Under the pieces are notes generated by a model. It ran no database searches. It was not told the DNA's origin and worked only from the letters and a program-made list of their open reading frames with translations. Shown in pieces: positions 4,933-21,281 of a DNA stretch of 21,281 nucleotides. This DNA comes from a virus (lineage: Duplodnaviria > Heunggongvirae > Uroviricota > Caudoviricetes), in IMG/VR virus record IMGVR_UViG_2671180673_000012, one strand, 5' to 3'. The translations under genes and the position numbers were made by a program. Within the stretch, counting starts at the first letter, position 1, and each line of letters starts with the position of its first letter.

Positions 4933-5099
4933 GATGGCAGCCTCCGCGATGAATTTGATTAACTCACCACCGAGGTTTTCCACGACCATAAGGGTGGTGA
5001 GACGTACAGGGGTGGAAATACCGGTCATCACGGAACCCGGCCAGCCTTGCGGCTGCCCTGCACGCCCCACCATAATGCGAATGTGGCTGTGCTTAACGC

Positions 5100-5124
5100 A
5101 TAAAAAAACCGCCTGAGCGCGGTT
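5100..5124 (-). terminator. Rho-independent terminator, leftward transcription
   Basis: On the minus strand: 6-bp stem AACCGC/GCGGTT, 6-nt loop, then a run of T; located upstream of the Rha RBS. Confidence 0.5.
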
Positions 5125-5775
5125 ATGCGCCGTGAATGATTTCGGGTTTCCACGCCCGGCACCCGTTTTATGAGGTGCAGGTGCACTATAATTCCACCCG
5201 TTCTGGTTTTCAATAGCTACATTCAACATTTTCTCTACCTTTCATCACCGAAGTGAACTTTGTTGATGCGGTGCCTGGTGCCTCCAGGTGACGTTAACCA
5301 GTTAACAATTAACGTCGGATACAGAGCATTCCCGTTACGCCCGTAAAAGACCGCTTGTTTTAACTGTTCCGCGTGCGCTGAGCCGCATTCACCGCATCAC
5401 AAAATTCACTTTAAAAAGGGCGGCAGAGCAGTCACGGAGTAGAACTGATACCGCCAAAAGTCACCAGAAAATTGATAACAGAGGGCGTTGCAGCGGAGTT
5501 GTCACTTAAGCGTATGGTCAACCTGACAACCCGGTGTCCTCAACGGGGGAAGGAATAACCCCGCCATACTTACCGCCGCGCCATTTCGCGGATTGCCACA
5601 ACCGGAAGCGCACGATCGAATTAAATTTAACGACGACCTATACAGAGAGACTAACTTCTCCGGGCGCTTTCGTGTTATGCCCTGACTTTTCAGGGATATA
5701 TCCTTTTCAGTAAACTGTCAGTGCCGGATTCTTATCCGTGTCCGGCGCACGCACTCTACCTCACCTGTGAATAAA

Positions 5776-13136: not shown

Positions 13137-13194
13137 TGCAGCGGGTGCTTGAGGCTATCTGTCTCAGGCATGAACACCAAAAGGCAGATAGAGA

Positions 13195-13265
13195 AAAGCC
13201 CCAGTTAACATTACGCGTCCGGCAAGACGCTTAACATTAATCTGAGGCCATATCTATGCTCTACA
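13195..13265 (-). ncRNA. Putative Sok-like antisense RNA region (approximate)
   Basis: Inferred only from hok/sok architecture, where the antisense RNA overlaps the mok-like start region of the leader; boundaries not determinable from sequence. Confidence 0.3.
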
Positions 13266-13312
13266 CACGTAGGTTAGCCTCTTACGTGCCGAAAGGCAAG
13301 GAGAAGCAGGCT

Positions 13313-13468
13313 ATGAAGCAGCAAAAGGCGATGCTAATCGCCCTGATCGTCATCTGTTTAACCGTCATTGTGACGGCACTGGTAACGAGGAAAGACCTCT
13401 GCGAGGTACGAATCCGAACCGGCCAGACGGAGGTCGCTGTCTTCACAGCTTACGAACCTGAGGAGTAA
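13313..13468 (+). CDS. hokD: Hok/Gef-family type I toxin (51 aa)
   Basis: MKQQKAMLIALIVICLTVIVTALVTRKDLCEVRIRTGQTEVAVFTAYEPEE: single transmembrane helix plus conserved RK(D/S)LCE(V/I)R motif; AGGAG RBS 9 nt upstream; the ORF-track entry from 13256 is an in-frame mok-like extension. The hokD/relF assignment is from recalled sequence. Confidence 0.85.
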   Translation: MKQQKAMLIALIVICLTVIVTALVTRKDLCEVRIRTGQTEVAVFTAYEPEE

Positions 13469-13536: not shown

Positions 13537-13558
13537 AACCCGCTTCGGCGGGTTTTTG
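13537..13558 (+). terminator. Rho-independent terminator (copy 1 of duplicated terminator)
   Basis: ACCCGC-TTCG-GCGGGT hairpin followed by TTTTT. Confidence 0.7.
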
Positions 13559-13569
13559 CATTAGTCTGG

Positions 13570-13598
13570 TTGACAAAAATAGAAAAATGCGAAAATAT
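13570..13598 (+). promoter_or_regulatory. Candidate promoter of the AT-rich two-gene insert
   Basis: Perfect TTGACA -35, 17-nt spacer, weak AAATAT -10, about 35 nt upstream of the 13634 ATG. Confidence 0.35.
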
Positions 13599-13633
13599 GT
13601 GGTTTACGAATTCTAAAAAAAGCGAAACTTGAA

Positions 13634-14284
13634 ATGAATGAAAATCAGTTAGCTCCTTGTTGGGAATTTCAACCTTATCTTGCTGAAAACTATGTTCGCC
13701 ACTTGTTGGCGGAGATCGCTAACGTACTTGAGCAGCTGTACTATCATAAGCACGCATTAGACAGCAACTGGTCTGAAGGTGTAAGGGCTTATGATTGGGT
13801 CAGAAATCATCTTATTCAAAATGAAGATGCAATTCCTGGCCTTGAGATGATTTCCAAGGGGTTGGACTATGTAGTTGCTTTAAATAAAGTTCCGCTACAA
13901 TTTACCAAAGATTGCATTAATAACCCCAAAAAGAAACATCGTCTGCGTCGAAATAAAGTAGAGTATGAGCAGCTCTCATTGTTTGGTGATGTTGAGGCTG
14001 AGCAAGATATTACATGGCGAGTCATAGCTGAGCCTTTTTTATCCGAAGAGGGCGATGGTGAATTAGAGTCCACACTGCCTCGTTGGGAGGTAGCTCTTGT
14101 TGGATTTAATACTTATGGTGCTCAGATTAGTATAGTTTCTCATCAATCTACAGCATCGATGCCGCTTATGCCTCTTGATTATAACACACTCCCTGACGAA
14201 GCGGAGATTAATAAGGTGCCTCTTCGCCGGCGTACGAAGGATAAAGATTTGGATGTGAGCAGTGATGGAACATCAGGTGAATAA
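13634..14284 (+). CDS. Hypothetical protein (216 aa), first gene of the insert; candidate effector/toxin partner
   Basis: Continuous ORF; about 33% GC over the first 60 nt against about 50% in flanking phage genes; no domain recognised by eye; 3' end overlaps the downstream gene by 20 nt. Confidence 0.6.
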   Translation: MNENQLAPCWEFQPYLAENYVRHLLAEIANVLEQLYYHKHALDSNWSEGVRAYDWVRNHLIQNEDAIPGLEMISKGLDYVVALNKVPLQFTKDCINNPKKKHRLRRNKVEYEQLSLFGDVEAEQDITWRVIAEPFLSEEGDGELESTLPRWEVALVGFNTYGAQISIVSHQSTASMPLMPLDYNTLPDEAEINKVPLRRRTKDKDLDVSSDGTSGE

Positions 14285-15368
14285 CTTCACTGAGTATCGG
14301 GGTGATAAGCTCAAACTAGCGAGAATGGCTGTTGGGCTTTCTTGTGAAGAGTTAGCCGAAAAAATTGGCAAGACAAAGCAATTCGTTAGCAAACTGGAGA
14401 AGGGGTGCAGGCCATCGGAGCAATGTCTTGAGTTAATATCTTCAGCGCTTATGATTAAGTCCAGTTTTCTTTTTACTGAACGAAAATACGCTCTGGAAAG
14501 TGATGTCTGCCATTTTCGGAGTAAGAAGTCCAGGACTCAAACGCTGACTAATAGTGTATTGGCCAGGGCTGAGATTCTTAATATTATAATTTCTGCTGTT
14601 GAAGGTGAAATCGAATTTCCTGACGTTAACATACCGGAGCACCCAGGGGCTGAATTACTTACTCCGAATGATATTGAGCGAGTGGCAGAAGATTGTCGCC
14701 GTGCCTGGAATTTAGGTCTTGGCCCTATATCATCAATGGTTAAATTGGCGGAGAGTTTAGGGGTAATCGTTGCGCATGTTACGGGAGTCGATGATCGTGT
14801 TGATGCTTTTACTGTTCACAATAACAGGCCTGTTATCATCAGGAACAATGTTAAAAAAAGCATATGTAGATTTCGCTCTGATTTAGGTCATGAATTAGGG
14901 CATTTAGTAATGCATGAGGGCATAACGACAGGTGATAAACTTACGGAATCACAAGCCGATCACTTTTCGAGCGCCTTATTAGTTCCCAGGTTATCTTTCA
15001 TTAAAGAATTTCCACGAATACGAGGTAAGCAATTCGACTGGAATGCTCTGGTTGAATTTAAACTTAGATGGAAAATCAGCCTTAAAATGTGTATTTATCG
15101 AGCCAGCGCATTAGGCTTATTGACCCAGGAACAGGCAAGAACTGGCTATATGCATCTTAATTCCAGAGGGTATACGAGAGTTGAACCTGGTGATGAACTT
15201 TTGCGCCCTGAAGAACCCGGCATGCTGGCCGAGGCGATTGAAATGCTGGATGATGCAACCTGGCTAAGAATTCTTATGAAAACTGGCTTGAGCCAAGATT
15301 TAATTCGTGAGTTGTTCTCCATCAACAGACCTATTACAAATCCAAGAAATATTTTCCAGATTGTTTGA
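14265..15368 (+). CDS. Fused XRE-family HTH + ImmA/IrrE-family (COG2856, HEXXH) zinc metallopeptidase
   Basis: N-terminal HTH (LSCEELAEKIGKTKQFVSKLEKG); HEXXH motif DLGHELGHLVMHEG in the central region; ATG at 14265 (ORF-track entry starts at GTG 14262). Confidence 0.8.
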   Translation: MEHQVNNFTEYRGDKLKLARMAVGLSCEELAEKIGKTKQFVSKLEKGCRPSEQCLELISSALMIKSSFLFTERKYALESDVCHFRSKKSRTQTLTNSVLARAEILNIIISAVEGEIEFPDVNIPEHPGAELLTPNDIERVAEDCRRAWNLGLGPISSMVKLAESLGVIVAHVTGVDDRVDAFTVHNNRPVIIRNNVKKSICRFRSDLGHELGHLVMHEGITTGDKLTESQADHFSSALLVPRLSFIKEFPRIRGKQFDWNALVEFKLRWKISLKMCIYRASALGLLTQEQARTGYMHLNSRGYTRVEPGDELLRPEEPGMLAEAIEMLDDATWLRILMKTGLSQDLIRELFSINRPITNPRNIFQIV

Positions 15369-15372
15369 GTAT

Positions 15373-15393
15373 ACCCGCTTCGGCGGGTTTTTT
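15373..15393 (+). terminator. Rho-independent terminator (copy 2, same sequence as 13537-13558)
   Basis: ACCCGC-TTCG-GCGGGT hairpin followed by TTTTTT. Confidence 0.7.
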
Positions 15394-15412
15394 GTTTTTA
15401 TTTTCAACGTGT

Positions 15413-15477: not shown

Positions 15478-15699
15478 ATGGACCCCGAACAGGGGGAGTG
15501 CTATTTATCTGGAAGGATTCTGTTGATGAAAATCGAAGAATTACGTGAAATTTTTAGTGAAGATGGCCTCTATGCTGTGCGCGTTGAGAATGGGGGTATT
15601 ACCTACACAGCGTTAATTCCTGATGATCATGTAGTGTTATCTGTTGAGGCATTCATTGAATACTTGGAAAGACTCGGTTTCAAGGTAGTTCGGGAATAA
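15478..15699 (+). CDS. Small hypothetical protein
   Basis: ATG at 15478 preceded by GGGAG; alternative ATG at 15526 has a GGAAGGA RBS 8 nt upstream, giving a 57-aa product. Confidence 0.5.
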   Translation: MDPEQGECYLSGRILLMKIEELREIFSEDGLYAVRVENGGITYTALIPDDHVVLSVEAFIEYLERLGFKVVRE

Positions 15700-16032: not shown

Positions 16033-17079
16033 GTGCGGGTATTACTTCGACCTGTTCTGGTACCGGAACTCGGGCTGGTGATCGTTAAGCCGGGCCGTGA
16101 ATCCATGCCGGTATTCCACAATACCCGGGTACTGGTGGAGCCGGAACCGAAAAGCATGCGTAATCTGCCGTCCGGGGTCGTTCCTGCCGTTCGCCAGCCG
16201 CTGGCGGAGGATAAATCATTACTGCCATTTTTCAGCGACGAACGAGTGATTCGTGCTGCTGGTGGCGCTGGCGCATTGTCTGANTGGTTACTGCGCCATG
16301 TTAAATCCTGCCAGTGGCCACACGGCGATTATCACCACAGTGAAACCGTCATTCACCGTTATGGTACCGGCGCAATGGTGTTGTGCTGGCACTGCGACAA
16401 CCAGCTGCGCGACCAGACCTCCGAATCACTCGGGCAACTTGCTCACCAAAACCTGTNTGCATGGATGATTGACGTCATACGCCATGCAATGAATGGCTCG
16501 CAGGAACGGGAATTATCGCTGGCTGAATTATCCTGGTGGGCGGTCCGCAATCAGGTGGCGGACGCGCTACCGGAAGCGGTATTACGTCGTTCGCTGGGGT
16601 TGCGTGCGGAAAAAATCCGCTCAATGTACCGTGAAAGCGACATCGTACCGGGAGAGCAGACCGCCACCAGCATACTGAAGCAGCGCACAAAAAATCTTGC
16701 GCCGCTGCCTCACGCCCACCAGCAAAACCCGCCACAGGAAGAGACGGTGGTCAGCATTGCCGTTGATCCTGAGTCTCCGGAATCTTTCATGAAACGACCT
16801 AAACGTCGCCGCTGGGTTAACGAGAAATACACACGCTGGGTGAAGACACAGCCGTGTGCGTGTTGTGGTAAGCCAGCCGACGATCCCCATCACCTGATTG
16901 GTCATGGTCAGGGCGGAATGGGGACAAAATCTCACGATATTTTCACGCTACCGCTGTGTCGGGAGCATCACAACGAGCTTCATGCGGATCCTCTGGCGTT
17001 CGAAGAAAAACATGGTTCTCAGGTTGATTTAATTTTTCGTTTTCTTGATCACGCCTTTGCAACTGGCGTGCTTGGGTAA
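16033..17079 (+). CDS. DUF968/YdfU-like protein with C-terminal HNH-like Cys/His motif
   Basis: 348 aa; CACCGKPADDPHHLIGHGQGG ... CREHHNELH at the C-terminus; GTG start with GGAGG RBS 4 nt upstream; two n-derived X residues. Confidence 0.75.
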   Translation: MRVLLRPVLVPELGLVIVKPGRESMPVFHNTRVLVEPEPKSMRNLPSGVVPAVRQPLAEDKSLLPFFSDERVIRAAGGAGALSXWLLRHVKSCQWPHGDYHHSETVIHRYGTGAMVLCWHCDNQLRDQTSESLGQLAHQNLXAWMIDVIRHAMNGSQERELSLAELSWWAVRNQVADALPEAVLRRSLGLRAEKIRSMYRESDIVPGEQTATSILKQRTKNLAPLPHAHQQNPPQEETVVSIAVDPESPESFMKRPKRRRWVNEKYTRWVKTQPCACCGKPADDPHHLIGHGQGGMGTKSHDIFTLPLCREHHNELHADPLAFEEKHGSQVDLIFRFLDHAFATGVLG

Positions 17080-17091
17080 AAGAGGTGACTG

Positions 17092-17466
17092 ATGCTCATA
17101 GATTTGGTTTTACCTTACCCGCCGACGGTGAACACTTACTGGCGACGCCGTGGCAGCACATATTTTATCTCGGAGGAGGGAAAGCGTTATCGCCGGGCTG
17201 TGGCGCTTATTGTTCGCCAGCAGCGGCTGAAATTAAGCCTGTCCGGAAGGCTGGCGATAAAGGTGATTGCAGAGCCACCGGATAAGCGTCGTCGCGACCT
17301 GGACAATATCCTGAAAGCACCGCTGGATGCGCTGACGCATGCGGGAGTGTTAATGGACGATGAGCAGTTTGATGAAATCAATATCGTTCGTGGTCAGCCA
17401 GTATCTGGTGGACGTATGGGGGTGAAGATTTACCCCATAATGCATGAAGAGCAGGTCAAAAAATGA
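17092..17466 (+). CDS. rusA: RusA-family Holliday junction resolvase
   Basis: 124 aa; RusA-like motifs (PPTVNTYWRRRG ... KRRRDLDNILKAPLDALTHAGVLMDDEQ); GAGGTG RBS 5 nt upstream. Confidence 0.85.
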   Translation: MLIDLVLPYPPTVNTYWRRRGSTYFISEEGKRYRRAVALIVRQQRLKLSLSGRLAIKVIAEPPDKRRRDLDNILKAPLDALTHAGVLMDDEQFDEINIVRGQPVSGGRMGVKIYPIMHEEQVKK

Positions 17467-18284
17467 AACTGGAAGATTTACCGAAATACTACTCCCCAAA
17501 ATCCCCTGGCCTGACCGATGCATCGGCCTCAACGTCAAAAGATGCGCTGAGTATCACTGATGTGATGGCCGCGCAGGGCATGACACAGAATCGGGCTGAG
17601 ATGGGGTTTTCTGCGTTCCTGGGGAAAATGGGCATCAGTATGAATGACAGGGCGCGGGCAACAGAATTACTGGCAGATTATGCACTCAGTCGGTGCGATC
17701 GTGTGGCGGCGTTGAGAAAACTTCCGGCAGAAATAAAACCGGTAGTGATGCGCATTATGGCTTCGTATGCGTTTGAAGATTATGCCCGTAGCGCGGCGAG
17801 CAAAAAACAGTGCCCCTGCTGTCACGGAAAAAAATTTATTGAAAGCGAGGTTTTTACAAACAAGATCCAGTATCCGGATGGTAAGCCACCAGTGTGGGCA
17901 AAGTGCACAAAAGGCGTGTATCCGTCTTACTGGGAAGAATGGAAAAAAGTCAGGGAGGTGGTAAAAGTTGCCTGTCCGGAGTGTGGCGGAAAGGGTGAGG
18001 TTTCCACCGCCTGTAAGGATTGCCGTGGGCGTGGTGTCGCCATTCATCGTGAAGAGTCGGTAAAACGTGGTATGCCTGTTATCAGAGANTGCCAGCGTTG
18101 TGGTGGTCGTGGCTGTGAAAGNCTNCCATCAACGGAGGCATTTAATGCCATATGCAAAGTGACGAGTGCTATCACGCTTGATACGTGGAAAAAATCAGTG
18201 AAACGCTTTTACGATACGTTGGTGGTTCGGTTTGACATTGAAGAGGCATGGGCGGAGCGGCAGTTAAAGAGGGTAACGCGATAG
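17463..18284 (+). CDS. Late-gene antitermination protein Q
   Basis: 273 aa starting MKLEDLPKYYSPKSP; repeated CxxCxGxG zinc-finger motifs; ATGA coupling to rusA; immediately upstream of the late promoter and terminator. Confidence 0.85.
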   Translation: MKLEDLPKYYSPKSPGLTDASASTSKDALSITDVMAAQGMTQNRAEMGFSAFLGKMGISMNDRARATELLADYALSRCDRVAALRKLPAEIKPVVMRIMASYAFEDYARSAASKKQCPCCHGKKFIESEVFTNKIQYPDGKPPVWAKCTKGVYPSYWEEWKKVREVVKVACPECGGKGEVSTACKDCRGRGVAIHREESVKRGMPVIRXCQRCGGRGCEXXPSTEAFNAICKVTSAITLDTWKKSVKRFYDTLVVRFDIEEAWAERQLKRVTR

Positions 18285-18289
18285 TGTTG

Positions 18290-18317
18290 TTGATTTTTCC
18301 CGAATCTGTGGTAAATT
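18290..18317 (+). promoter_or_regulatory. Candidate late promoter (pR'-like) with extended -10
   Basis: TTGATT, 16-nt spacer, TGgTAAATT, directly downstream of Q. Confidence 0.5.
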
Positions 18318-18365
18318 TGCTCTAACGATGGGCGTTTTATGCCTGACGTTAGAAGATTTTTTACA

Positions 18366-18389
18366 CCCCGCCGCCTGGCGGGTTTTTTA
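18366..18389 (+). terminator. Rho-independent terminator (tR'-like), presumed target of Q antitermination
   Basis: CCCGCC-GCCT-GGCGGG hairpin followed by TTTTTT, about 50 nt downstream of the promoter -10. Confidence 0.6.
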
Positions 18390-18510
18390 TGACTGAAATC
18401 GCGTCAGTACAGTAAACGCGCTGGTGGCGGTGAATACCTGTCTTTCAGCTTGCTGGCTTTTTCGACAAGAGTTATTGGTGTGTCACGTTAACCGGAAAAG
18501 GGAAAAAGAC

Positions 18511-18708
18511 ATGCTAAAACAGCAGGATATGACAGAAACCGCCAGAGTNGTGTTTAATGAATTAAGCGTTACCGAACCGGCGACAGTCGGGGAGATNGCN
18601 CAGAATACTTACCTTTCACGCGAACGCTGCCAGTTAATACTGACCCAGCTGGTTATGGCGGGTCTGGCAGACTATCAGTTCGGTTGTTACAGACGCCTTC
18701 CGCAGTGA
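18511..18708 (+). CDS. Small hypothetical protein (65 aa)
   Basis: ATG at 18511 with AAGGGA upstream; the ORF-track entry from 18424 is an N-terminal extension; n-derived X residues present. Confidence 0.45.
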   Translation: MLKQQDMTETARXVFNELSVTEPATVGEXXQNTYLSRERCQLILTQLVMAGLADYQFGCYRRLPQ

Positions 18709-19957: not shown

Positions 19958-20033
19958 GGCCCTTTAGCTCAGTGGTGAGAGCGAGCGACTCATAATCGCC
20001 AGGTCGCTGGTTCAAATCCAGCAAGGGCCACCA
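19958..20033 (+). tRNA. ileZ: tRNA with CAU anticodon, Ile2 (lysidine)-type by resemblance to ileX/ileY
   Basis: Manual cloverleaf: acceptor GGCCCTT/AAGGGCC, D-arm GCTC..GAGC, anticodon loop CTCATAA, T-loop TTCAAAT, encoded CCA. Confidence 0.85.
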
Positions 20034-20040
20034 TCACATA

Positions 20041-20117
20041 CCGCCATTAGCTCATCAGGAAAGAGCGCCAGCCTTCGAAGCTGGTTGCGCGGAGTTCGGG
20101 TCCCCGAAGGCGGTCCA
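20041..20117 (+). tRNA. argN: tRNA-Arg (anticodon UCG) with atypical T-loop and one acceptor-stem mismatch
   Basis: Manual fold: D-arm GCTC..GAGC, anticodon stem CCAGC/GCTGG, loop CTTCGAA, T-loop TTCGGGT, encoded CCA. Confidence 0.7.
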
Positions 20118-20130
20118 TTATCTGTATCCT

Positions 20131-20207
20131 GCGTTGTTAGCTCAGCCGGACAGAGCAATTGCCTTCTAAGCAATCGGTCACTGGTTCGAATCCAGTACAA
20201 CGCGCCA
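20131..20207 (+). tRNA. argO: tRNA-Arg (anticodon UCU)
   Basis: Manual fold: acceptor GCGTTGT/ACAACGC, anticodon stem ATTGC/GCAAT, loop CTTCTAA, T-loop TTCGAAT, encoded CCA. Confidence 0.85.
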
Positions 20208-20246: not shown

Positions 20247-20443
20247 AAATGTCTCACAATTCAGGCGGTTGACTGTTGTCTGGTTTGCGGGGAGTTTGTT
20301 AAAAGAAACTGGCATGGTGAATCCCCCTGTGCGGAGGGGCAATCAGCGAGTAGGTATATGGGATAATCGCGGATTCAGGTGCTGGTACTGAATTCACCGG
20401 GAGGCACCCGGCACCATGCAATGGCACATAGCGCCACTCTCCA

Positions 20444-20465
20444 GCCCCTCTCCGGAGGGGCTTTT
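20444..20465 (+). terminator. Hairpin terminator-like element
   Basis: GCCCCTC-TCCG-GAGGGGC followed by TTTT. Confidence 0.4.
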
Positions 20466-20656
20466 CTGTGCCGGATACATCACAGTTTCTGGAACCTTAG
20501 GTACTACAGTATCAGTCAGGGTGCTATATTTTCAGATGTGATGAAAGCCTGTCAGCAGGCAGGGCGTATCGGAAATGACCCAGTAGAGAAAACGTTGACT
20601 CAGATACCGGTGCTGAGTTACCGGGAAACCGGCATCACATGACCGCTATCCTTCCA

Positions 20657-20772: not shown

Positions 20773-21099
20773 ATGACTAAAAATACTCGTTTTTCCCCCG
20801 AAGTCCGTCAACGGGCAGTCCGTATGGTTCTGGAAAGTCAGAGCGAATATGACTCACAATGGGCGACAATTTGTTCCATTGCTCCAAAGATTGGCTGTAC
20901 GCCGGAGACTCTGCGTGTCTGGGTTCGCCAGCATGAGCGGGATACCGGGGGCGGTGATGGAGGGCTCACCACCGCTGAACGTCAGCGTCTGAAAGAGCTG
21001 GAACGTGAAAATCGTGAACTGCGCCGCAGTAACGATATCCTTCGCCAGGCTTCCGCTTATTTTGCGAAGGCGGAGTTCGACCGCCTCTGGAAAAAATGA
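20773..21099 (+). CDS. IS629-like transposase OrfA (HTH, leucine-zipper region)
   Basis: 108 aa: [19 protein letters not shown] ... [31 protein letters not shown], an IS3-family OrfA pattern. Confidence 0.85.
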
Positions 21100-21281
21100 T
21101 GCCACTGCTGGATAAGCTGCGTGAGCAGTACGGGGTCGGACCGCTATGCAGCGAACTGCATATTGCCCCGTCAACGTATTACCACTGTCAGCAACAGCGA
21201 CATCATCCGGATAAACGCAGTGCCCGTGCGCAGCGCGATGACTGGCTGAAGAAAGAGATACAGCGCGTATACGATGAAAAT
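21096..21281 (+). CDS. IS629-like transposase OrfB, N-terminal fragment (partial, runs off window)
   Basis: -1 frame relative to OrfA, starting in the AAAAAATGATG overlap; reads [30 protein letters not shown]...; no stop before the window end. Confidence 0.8.

Follow-up and report, generated by a model that had tools for sequence, protein, structure and literature searches.

Does the ORF with an ATG start at 13634..14284 on the (+) strand of the window (the whole 21,281-nt stretch of viral DNA analysed here) encode a toxin that is controlled by the gene directly downstream? The original prediction had placed a 216-aa ORF at this position and described its product as an orphan with no recognizable domain, a candidate effector held in check by a downstream regulator-protease. 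The ORF was present at these coordinates, with a product of 216 aa. A first word-seeded search returned only enterobacterial relatives, at 53–84% identity, and intact homologues in this range were found in Enterobacter, Buttiauxella, Serratia and Xenorhabdus. The same family includes some 60 additional clusters (50% identity), and RefSeq holds the protein as WP_001004956.1, annotated only as 'hypothetical protein'; no mention of this accession was found in the searchable literature. Because of the intact homologues across genera, the further clusters and the RefSeq annotation, the ORF is, on this comparative evidence, a real gene and not a chance ORF. When the 216-aa protein was searched against Pfam and NCBIfam, no family was matched, in agreement with the predicted lack of a recognizable domain. 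The protein proved not to be an orphan, since it matches PHROG 5786 (E 8e-85) and, over residues 7–209, the PADLOC RmrT model PDLC03929 (E 4.6e-25). The gene is referred to below as rmrT and its downstream neighbour as rmrA; the coordinates of both, and of the features around them, are collected in Table 1.

Table 1. Features of the rmrT–rmrA cassette in the window, in order of position
Feature	Position	Strand	Basis or remark
Left copy of an exact 20-nt direct repeat, ACCCGCTTCGGCGGGTTTTT	13538..13557	+	hok terminator hairpin; left junction
Putative promoter/operator region of the cassette	13567..13627	+	Repeat search; cross-genus conservation
rmrT	13634..14284	+	Probable toxin of the module, Vmi480 family; PADLOC PDLC03929, PHROG 5786
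Family signature codons D43-S-N-W-S47-E-G49-V-R51-A-Y53	13760..13792	+	Alignment
Q113-L-S-L-F117 (codons CAG CTC TCA TTG TTT)	13970..13984	+	Equals the consensus beta-sliding-clamp motif QL[S/D]LF
rmrA	14265..15368	+	367 aa; XRE-type HTH fused to M78 (ImmA/IrrE) Zn-peptidase; overlaps rmrT by 20 nt
Right copy of the hairpin repeat (15373–15392) plus T-run	15373..15398	+	Cassette terminator; right junction

Two features of the protein named in the original prediction, a basic patch and an acidic C-terminal tail, were borne out: PKKKHRLRRNK lies at residues 98–108, with a net charge of +6 over the segment 98–110, and DKDLDVSSDGTSGE occupies residues 203–216. By its composition, RmrT is a soluble, acidic protein (pI 4.9, GRAVY −0.54). 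The maximum Kyte–Doolittle hydropathy over 19 residues is 0.84, and no transmembrane or membrane-anchoring segment was predicted in RmrT. In this respect it differs from RmrT(D5) of the Gordonia phage Kita, which is encoded on the phage genome as part of a RosmerTA module together with an ImmA-type antitoxin, RmrA (Ernits 2023); the Kita toxin is membrane-targeted and depolarizing, whereas the window protein is soluble without a hydrophobic segment. A membrane-toxin mechanism of the Kita type was therefore rejected for RmrT. Structure prediction and a structural search, two of the checks proposed with the original prediction, yielded a moderately confident model (pLDDT 67), and none of its structural matches was significant. 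An alternative is that RmrT is a nuclease toxin of the PD-(D/E)xK (restriction-endonuclease-like) type that degrades DNA. We regard this as improbable; the conserved catalytic D...(D/E)xK residues that this superfamily has in strands beta2/beta3 of its core were not found in RmrT.

We then turn to the partner of RmrT. In RmrA, an HTH at residues of about 13–62 (HTH_3, E 5e-7) is followed by a Peptidase_M78 match (E 6.5e-11), with a HELGH motif at residues 209–213 (nt 14889–14903), the H209, E210 and H213 of which are invariant in nine diverse RmrAs. The PADLOC RmrA model PDLC03943 matches this protein at E 6e-105, and the capP and capH models give partial matches only, to its two halves. RefSeq also uses the ATG at 14265 as the start of rmrA, and an in-frame GTG is present at 14262. 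Since this ATG precedes the stop codon of rmrT at 14282–14284, the predicted 20-nt overlap between the two genes was confirmed. In the ImmR/ImmA, IrrE/DdrO and CapH/CapP pairs, the HTH and the M78 peptidase are encoded by separate genes, whereas window RmrA carries both fused within 367 aa. In addition, no HTH was detected in the gene upstream of rmrA by domain, PHROG, PADLOC and NCBIfam searches of the rmrT product.

The RosmerTA system of E. coli OLC-716 is the defence-verified founding member of its class (Millman 2022). Window RmrA shows 29% identity to the RmrA of OLC-716 (E 2e-35), with the HExxH motifs aligned. For the toxins, homology between window RmrT and OLC-716 RmrT was rejected in both single-sequence and profile tests (hhalign probability 0.2–0.5%). 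The OLC-716 system has a demonstrated anti-phage phenotype, whereas the window pair is known from sequence; among Rosmer systems, only those of OLC-716 and phage Kita, whose toxins are unrelated to this one, have been shown to act against phages. The features of RosmerTA found in the window comprise an HTH-M78 antitoxin with an intact HExxH, an adjacent toxin gene on the same strand and the membership of this toxin in a catalogued RmrT family. Because the upstream product matches RmrT model PDLC03929 and its partner matches RmrA, rmrT–rmrA is in all probability a RosmerTA-type two-gene toxin–antitoxin/anti-phage module in which RmrT is the toxin. In all defining features accessible to in silico tests, the pair fits RosmerTA and, more narrowly, a subfamily formed by Vmi480/Vmi470 and the E101 module. 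Existing defence-system finders would already label the pair as RosmerTA.

Vmi480/Vmi470 is a toxin–antitoxin system of MGIVmi1, a mobilisable genomic island of Vibrio mimicus (Luo 2015, PMC4671572). In E. coli, vmi480 alone is lethal and co-expression of vmi470 rescues growth, while vmi470 alone is harmless and a single deletion of vmi470 was not obtainable (Luo 2015, PMC4671572). The cloning primers in Table S1 of that study give the protein termini MTKKPEFY...QKKVSDE and MIYQAVN...PLRSV. One member of the toxin family (P0194, 198 aa) and its neighbour at locus L010 (362 aa) correspond to vmi480–vmi470, with the primers, the sizes and the 5-bp spacer all matching. Compared with Vmi480, window RmrT showed 26% identity over 176 aa by BLASTP (E 1e-15) and an hhalign probability of 97.9% (E 4.6e-13, 178 columns), and RmrA showed 47% identity to Vmi470 (E 3e-124). 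The motifs PW..P.L, D..W[ST].G.R.Y, VP.[QR]F, E..Q..L and WR are common to RmrT and Vmi480. As judged by these pairwise and profile alignments, RmrT is a true homologue of Vmi480 and a member of the Vmi480 toxin family. The two systems share the order of toxin then antitoxin, a toxin without a known domain and similar protein sizes (198/362 aa for Vmi480/Vmi470 and 216/367 aa for the window pair). They differ in gene spacing, with 5 bp between the Vmi genes and a 20-nt overlap in the window, and in the carrier, which is a mobilisable genomic island for the former and a lambdoid prophage for the latter.

The second relative of the window pair is a prophage-borne pair of E. coli E101, E101_02645/E101_02644 (WP_001179380.1/WP_000481765.1), which makes clpP essential, is 33%/42% identical to Vmi480/470, and loses its effect on clpP essentiality by the suppressor T46S in the upstream protein (Rousset 2021 preprint). 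A near-identical E101-type pair, WP_001179381.1/WP_000481764.1, was found in E. coli strain 504239, with 32.9%/42.8% identity to the Vmi pair and Thr at residue 46; its identification as E101-type is based on the near-adjacent WP accessions, the identities to the Vmi pair and Thr46. The E101-type toxin matches the family HMM at E 2e-51, although the toxins of the window and of the E101 type are only 23.6% identical; the RmrAs are 42.6% identical and belong to the same RmrA family. Thr46 of the E101-type toxin corresponds to Ser47 of the window protein, which aligns with it within the conserved D-x-N-W-S-x-G motif. It is for the E101 type alone that dependence on ClpP is documented. Both Luo 2015 and Rousset 2021 were cited by Millman 2022 as earlier cases of the RosmerTA configuration, and an explicit connection of the PADLOC RmrT model with Vmi480 and with the ClpP-dependence module of E101 appears to be new.

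To define the toxin family, a HMMER profile scan of 1.84 billion representatives was performed and gave 69 proteins, nearly all of 195–225 aa. Among aligned diverse representatives of the family, 54/54 match PDLC03929 and no other PADLOC model, and neither the family profile nor the single protein matched any entry in Pfam, NCBIfam or PDB sequences. The alignment revealed an N-terminal PW..P.L, followed by D43..W[S/T].G49.R51.Y53...R57, VP87.[R/Q]F90, E110..Q113..L and W128-R, with D43, G49, R51 and Y53 invariant (alignment A4). When 50,697 isolated phage genomes were searched by tblastn, no RmrT homologue was detected; the family was seen in prophages and IMG/VR contigs instead.

The toxin gene and the antitoxin gene were found together throughout. 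At four of four distant genomic loci, a gene for an HTH_3 plus Peptidase_M78 protein of 371–377 aa directly follows the toxin gene (a fifth locus, cut off by the contig end, was left out of this count), and the contexts of these loci are integrase-linked islands, the vicinity of a HigB gene and housekeeping genes. With the RmrA profile, 80 IMG/VR loci were recovered at 37–100% identity, 79 of them with upstream sequence; all 79 carry a member of the toxin family (41 distinct proteins) directly upstream of the RmrA-type gene. Because of this arrangement at 79/79 viral loci, the pairing of toxin and RmrA is, by genome comparison, strict and co-evolving. In a single case, strain FDAARGOS_1249, IS5 interrupts rmrT and rmrA is intact, which matches the expectation for a toxin and its antitoxin.

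These data also bear on which of the two proteins is toxic. A reversal of roles, with the HTH-peptidase as the toxin and the upstream protein as its neutralizer, has a precedent in PD-lambda-2: the Xre-peptidase PD-lambda-2B is toxic by itself, and the HigB-like protein encoded upstream relieves this toxicity (Vassallo 2022). For the window pair this is very unlikely, as the Vmi pair behaves in the opposite way in the expression and deletion experiments cited above (PMC4671572), the E101 suppressors fall in the upstream gene, and the strain with IS5 in rmrT and an intact rmrA is viable. The architecture is also different, since PD-lambda-2 consists of three genes and includes a HigB-like partner. 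The arrangement put forward originally, a toxin restrained by the regulator-protease encoded downstream, is supported by the PADLOC matches of both RmrT and RmrA, by the homology to Vmi480/Vmi470 and to the E101 pair, and by the IS5 insertion in rmrT; the confident homology of RmrT is to a toxic family and not to a non-toxic phage family.

Next, we consider the genetic setting of the pair. The layout is that of one operon, with a single promoter region upstream, a terminator downstream and overlapping genes. A perfect −35 element, TTGACA, is present at 13570–13575, and two imperfect 28-nt repeat units of the form TGGTTkACrA...GCGAAA lie at 13567–13594 and 13600–13627, 33 nt apart; these units are presumed to be the binding sites of the RmrA HTH. 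Over about 65 nt upstream of the start codon, sequence conservation is high among the cassettes of E. coli, Enterobacter, Buttiauxella, Serratia and Xenorhabdus, and it ends abruptly 5′ of TTGACA. The cassette promoter was not called by the promoter scan, the best −10 candidates being outside the scan criteria; its putative position is assigned because of the perfect TTGACA and the cross-genus conservation. Two TTGGTTGACAAAA boxes occupy the equivalent promoter position of the E101-type cassette.

The cassette is bracketed by the two copies of the hairpin repeat (Table 1). In phages PhiR42_1 and mEp460_ev081, the hairpin runs straight into the sequence found in the window from 15393 onward, and therefore the window carries a clean insertion of 1,835 bp. 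The GC content of the cassette is about 39–44%, compared with 50–56% in the flanks. From its sequence context, the cassette is a moron of 1.8 kb that forms an autonomous unit directly after hok/sok, within the nin region of a lambdoid prophage of E. coli. A near-identical cassette is present in 237/5,426 complete E. coli genomes, and its two products are labelled in RefSeq as 'hypothetical protein' and 'helix-turn-helix domain-containing protein'. All enterobacterial relatives reside in lambdoid prophages at varying positions; the Serratia pair, for example, is located between Q and the holin gene. Two E. coli relatives are located between gpA and gpQ of P2-like prophages, a site known as a defence hotspot (Rousset 2022). 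Some phages have nothing in the hairpin-bracketed slot behind hok, and others carry one of two divergent Rosmer alleles there. The E101-type module is an allelic replacement in the same slot, between hokD and DUF968/RusA, with the same flanking hairpin repeats and with similar TGGTTGACAAAA promoter boxes. Such a hairpin-bracketed post-hok slot holding alternative Rosmer alleles appears to be new, and it illustrates the swapping of morons among lambdoid prophages.

This setting allows two further explanations to be weighed. The M78 peptidase and HTH domains of RmrA are those of ImmA/ImmR, IrrE/DdrO and CapP/CapH, and the pair could be an ImmR/ImmA-like switch for prophage induction, with the upstream protein as a non-toxic accessory or sensor. 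We consider this extremely unlikely: the cassette is optional and absent from related phages, its position differs among prophages and it also occurs in non-phage islands, a cI/cro-like region of its own is present elsewhere in the prophage, and toxicity has been demonstrated for homologues of the upstream gene product (PMC4671572). The other explanation is that the pair is an addiction or prophage-stabilization module similar to hok/sok, with no role in phage exclusion. The cassette adjoins hok/sok, which is another post-segregational killing locus, and for Vmi480/470, which resides on a mobilisable island, toxin–antitoxin behaviour alone has been shown (Luo 2015, PMC4671572). Against addiction as the only role, relatives are found in the P2 gpA–gpQ defence hotspot, RmrA is homologous to a defence-verified RmrA, and PADLOC lists the toxin family under RosmerTA. 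A function limited to addiction is possible but seems the less plausible view to us, and the roles in addiction and defence are compatible, not mutually exclusive.

Finally, we analysed a short motif of RmrT that may be relevant to the toxic mechanism of the proposed RosmerTA module. QL[S/D]LF is the consensus pentapeptide of clamp-binding motifs, QLSLF itself is named as a consensus motif and reportedly binds more tightly to the E. coli clamp than to the B. subtilis clamp, and a hexapeptide class, QphixLxL, is represented by QLSLPL of Hda (bioRxiv 10.64898/2026.05.27.728225). RmrT contains QLSLF at residues 113–117, between strands beta3 and beta4, where the model has low confidence. This match was noticed post hoc; the chance of an exact QL[S/D]LF is about 3e-4 per protein of RmrT composition. 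Among 125 distinct members of the family, the motif columns contain Q (116/125), L/M/F/I, S/D/T/G, L (93/125) and F (55/125), of which columns 1, 4 and 5 are the ones critical for clamp binding, and a strict near-canonical pattern is present in 38/125 members, compared with 0.15 in shuffles. The pentapeptide variants QMDLF and QLTLF were found in relatives, and hexapeptide forms were found in other members, including QLGLNL, QLSLPL and the QISLEL of Vmi480, which takes the place of the QLSLF of window RmrT. In a subclade including the E101-type and P2-hotspot toxins, Q-phi-x is lost and only [D/E]-L-F is kept; the E101-type toxin is without the Q of the motif, whereas window RmrT has Q113. The comparison of the motif over the 80 RmrA-anchored viral loci covered one toxin family only. 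In the unrelated RmrT of OLC-716, QLKLDL is present in 8/9 relatives and QLNFGF in the most divergent one, these relatives being so close (83–88% identity) that the conservation carries little weight. A conserved clamp-binding-like motif in this toxin family appears to be new.

Sliding-clamp targeting has been described for other toxins. RipA/RipB (Spr1630/Spr1629) of Streptococcus pneumoniae is a Rosmer-type pair in which RipA binds the hydrophobic pocket of DnaN, where the suppressors map, and neutralization of RipA requires ClpX; the paper on RipA makes no mention of a clamp-binding motif. SocB of the Caulobacter SocB/SocA pair also targets the DnaN pocket and is ClpXP-controlled. ClpX or ClpP dependence is reported for two Rosmer modules. 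The clamp targeting by RipA and SocB and their control by ClpX(P) parallel the ClpP dependence of E101 and the QLSLF of the window protein, RipA being likened to RmrT by its published behaviour. For the partners, SocA is not an HTH-peptidase whereas window RmrA is, and RmrA scored 156 bits against the NCBIfam model for spr1629, well under the cut-off of 335. Taken as a tentative proposal, RmrT may bind the protein-binding pocket of DnaN through QLSLF and so poison the sliding clamp. The motif could equally be a structural element, a docking, binding or cleavage site for RmrA, or a degron.

For the proposed RosmerTA module, a working model can be drawn as follows. The RmrA HTH would repress the operon at the repeated TGGTTGAC boxes, resulting in autoregulation, and RmrA, with the help of ClpXP, would keep RmrT inactive. 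In analogy to the ImmA/ImmR, IrrE/DdrO and CapP/CapH pairs, a phage or DNA-damage cue might then lead to the inactivation or self-cleavage of RmrA, with the HExxH site of RmrA acting, upon the signal, on the toxin or on RmrA itself. The freed RmrT would arrest the cell or its replication, or block the replication of the phage. The toxic step, if the clamp proposal is correct, would be the docking of RmrT in the DnaN pocket via QLSLF, in a manner similar to RipA and SocB.

A hypothetical gene of E. coli prophages can now be given a name, as the probable toxin of a RosmerTA system and a homologue of both vmi480, a counter-selection marker in wide use for Vibrio, and the E101 module. The clamp hypothesis ties together three hitherto unconnected observations: Rosmer toxins, ClpXP dependence and DnaN targeting. 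If it is true, toxins of the Vmi480 family would block replication that depends on the host replisome, including that of phages, and the essentiality of ClpX or ClpP in the presence of Rosmer modules would be explained. Together with RipA, and possibly with the QLKLDL of OLC-716, sequence-unrelated Rosmer toxins would then converge on DnaN. Carriers of the cassette, such as E. coli strains 042, ABU 83972 and VR50, may tolerate the loss of ClpXP poorly and may be able to exclude some phages.

We identified a cluster of prophage small RNAs, namely, C4 antisense RNA, isrK and DicF, on the minus strand at 4990-5469 of the window, and colinearity with E. coli 042 placed dicB and a Rha-family gene near this cluster. 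Such a set of genes and small RNAs is typical of Qin/Rac-like lambdoid prophages. Three tRNA genes and the STnc100 small RNA were located 3' of Q and a DNA methyltransferase; Stx phages carry tRNAs at the same position. The ALIL pseudoknot may be part of an insertion sequence at the right end of the window. The window contained 17 ambiguous bases (at 1541-2169, 16284, 16457, 18089-18600, 19815 and 19955), which gave X residues in the DUF968 ORF (16033-17079) and the Q-like antiterminator ORF (17463-18284), and none of the 17 was within the rmrTA cassette.

Features of the window in addition to the two rmrTA genes
Feature	Position	Strand	Remark
C4 antisense RNA	4990-5077	-	
isrK	5102-5178	-	
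DicF	5418-5469	-	
sok	13143-13318		Rfam, 117 bits
Hok/Gef ORF	13256-13468		Annotated hokD in E. coli 042
S47 codon of rmrT	13772-13774		
73-aa ORF	15478-15699		Hit to PHROG 340 (unknown function), just 3' of the cassette
Three tRNA genes	19958-20204		Annotated as Ile, Arg and Arg in E. coli 042
STnc100 sRNA	20283-20473		
ALIL pseudoknot	21054-21170		Rfam type Cis-reg

Two natural variations of the toxin gene were found. In E. coli FDAARGOS_1249 (comparison locus L011, 1812-3371), an IS5 element interrupts rmrT in its 5' portion; 140 codons remain of the gene, rmrA is intact, and this locus is a natural toxin knockout. The position of Thr46 in the toxin of the E. coli E101 prophage module, a divergent allele, is naturally occupied by Ser in the window toxin (S47) as well as in every close relative of this protein. 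The T46S substitution in the E101 toxin abolishes clpP essentiality (Rousset 2021 preprint).

The toxin/antitoxin family of the window cassette has additional members at two comparison loci, L106 (E. coli ABWA45, 1001-2730) and L108 (981-2718), in both cases in P2-like prophages between gpA (replication endonuclease) and gpQ (portal), an interval known as an anti-phage hotspot (Rousset et al. 2022). The defence-verified RmrT of OLC-716 (239 aa, Millman 2022 Table S) is unrelated in sequence to the window toxin. This protein contains QLKLDL at residues 143-148, which fits QphixLxL, the hexapeptide form of the clamp (DnaN)-binding motif; Q143 is invariant in nine relatives (loci L017-L025), the most divergent of which reads QLNFGF.

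Directly 5' of the RosmerTA cassette, the window carries an entire type I toxin-antitoxin locus, hok/sok (13143-13468), and therefore two unrelated toxin systems stand back to back. The sequence duplicated on either side of the cassette is the hok terminator hairpin. The slot following this terminator was found in at least three states: empty, as in phages PhiR42_1 and mEp460_ev081; occupied by the window cassette; or occupied by an E101-type cassette, as in E. coli 504239 (L107, NZ_CP025859.1 69262-73480), the counterpart of window 13538-15392. Between the E101-type and window cassettes, the toxins are 24% and the antitoxins 43% identical, and each occupied state is flanked on both sides by the same hairpin. 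In the cassette-less phages, the counterpart of the 73-aa ORF is the 'rem' gene region, directly 3' of the hok terminator. The post-hok slot looks like a site where morons are exchanged by recombination at the terminator hairpin, which would serve as the substrate.
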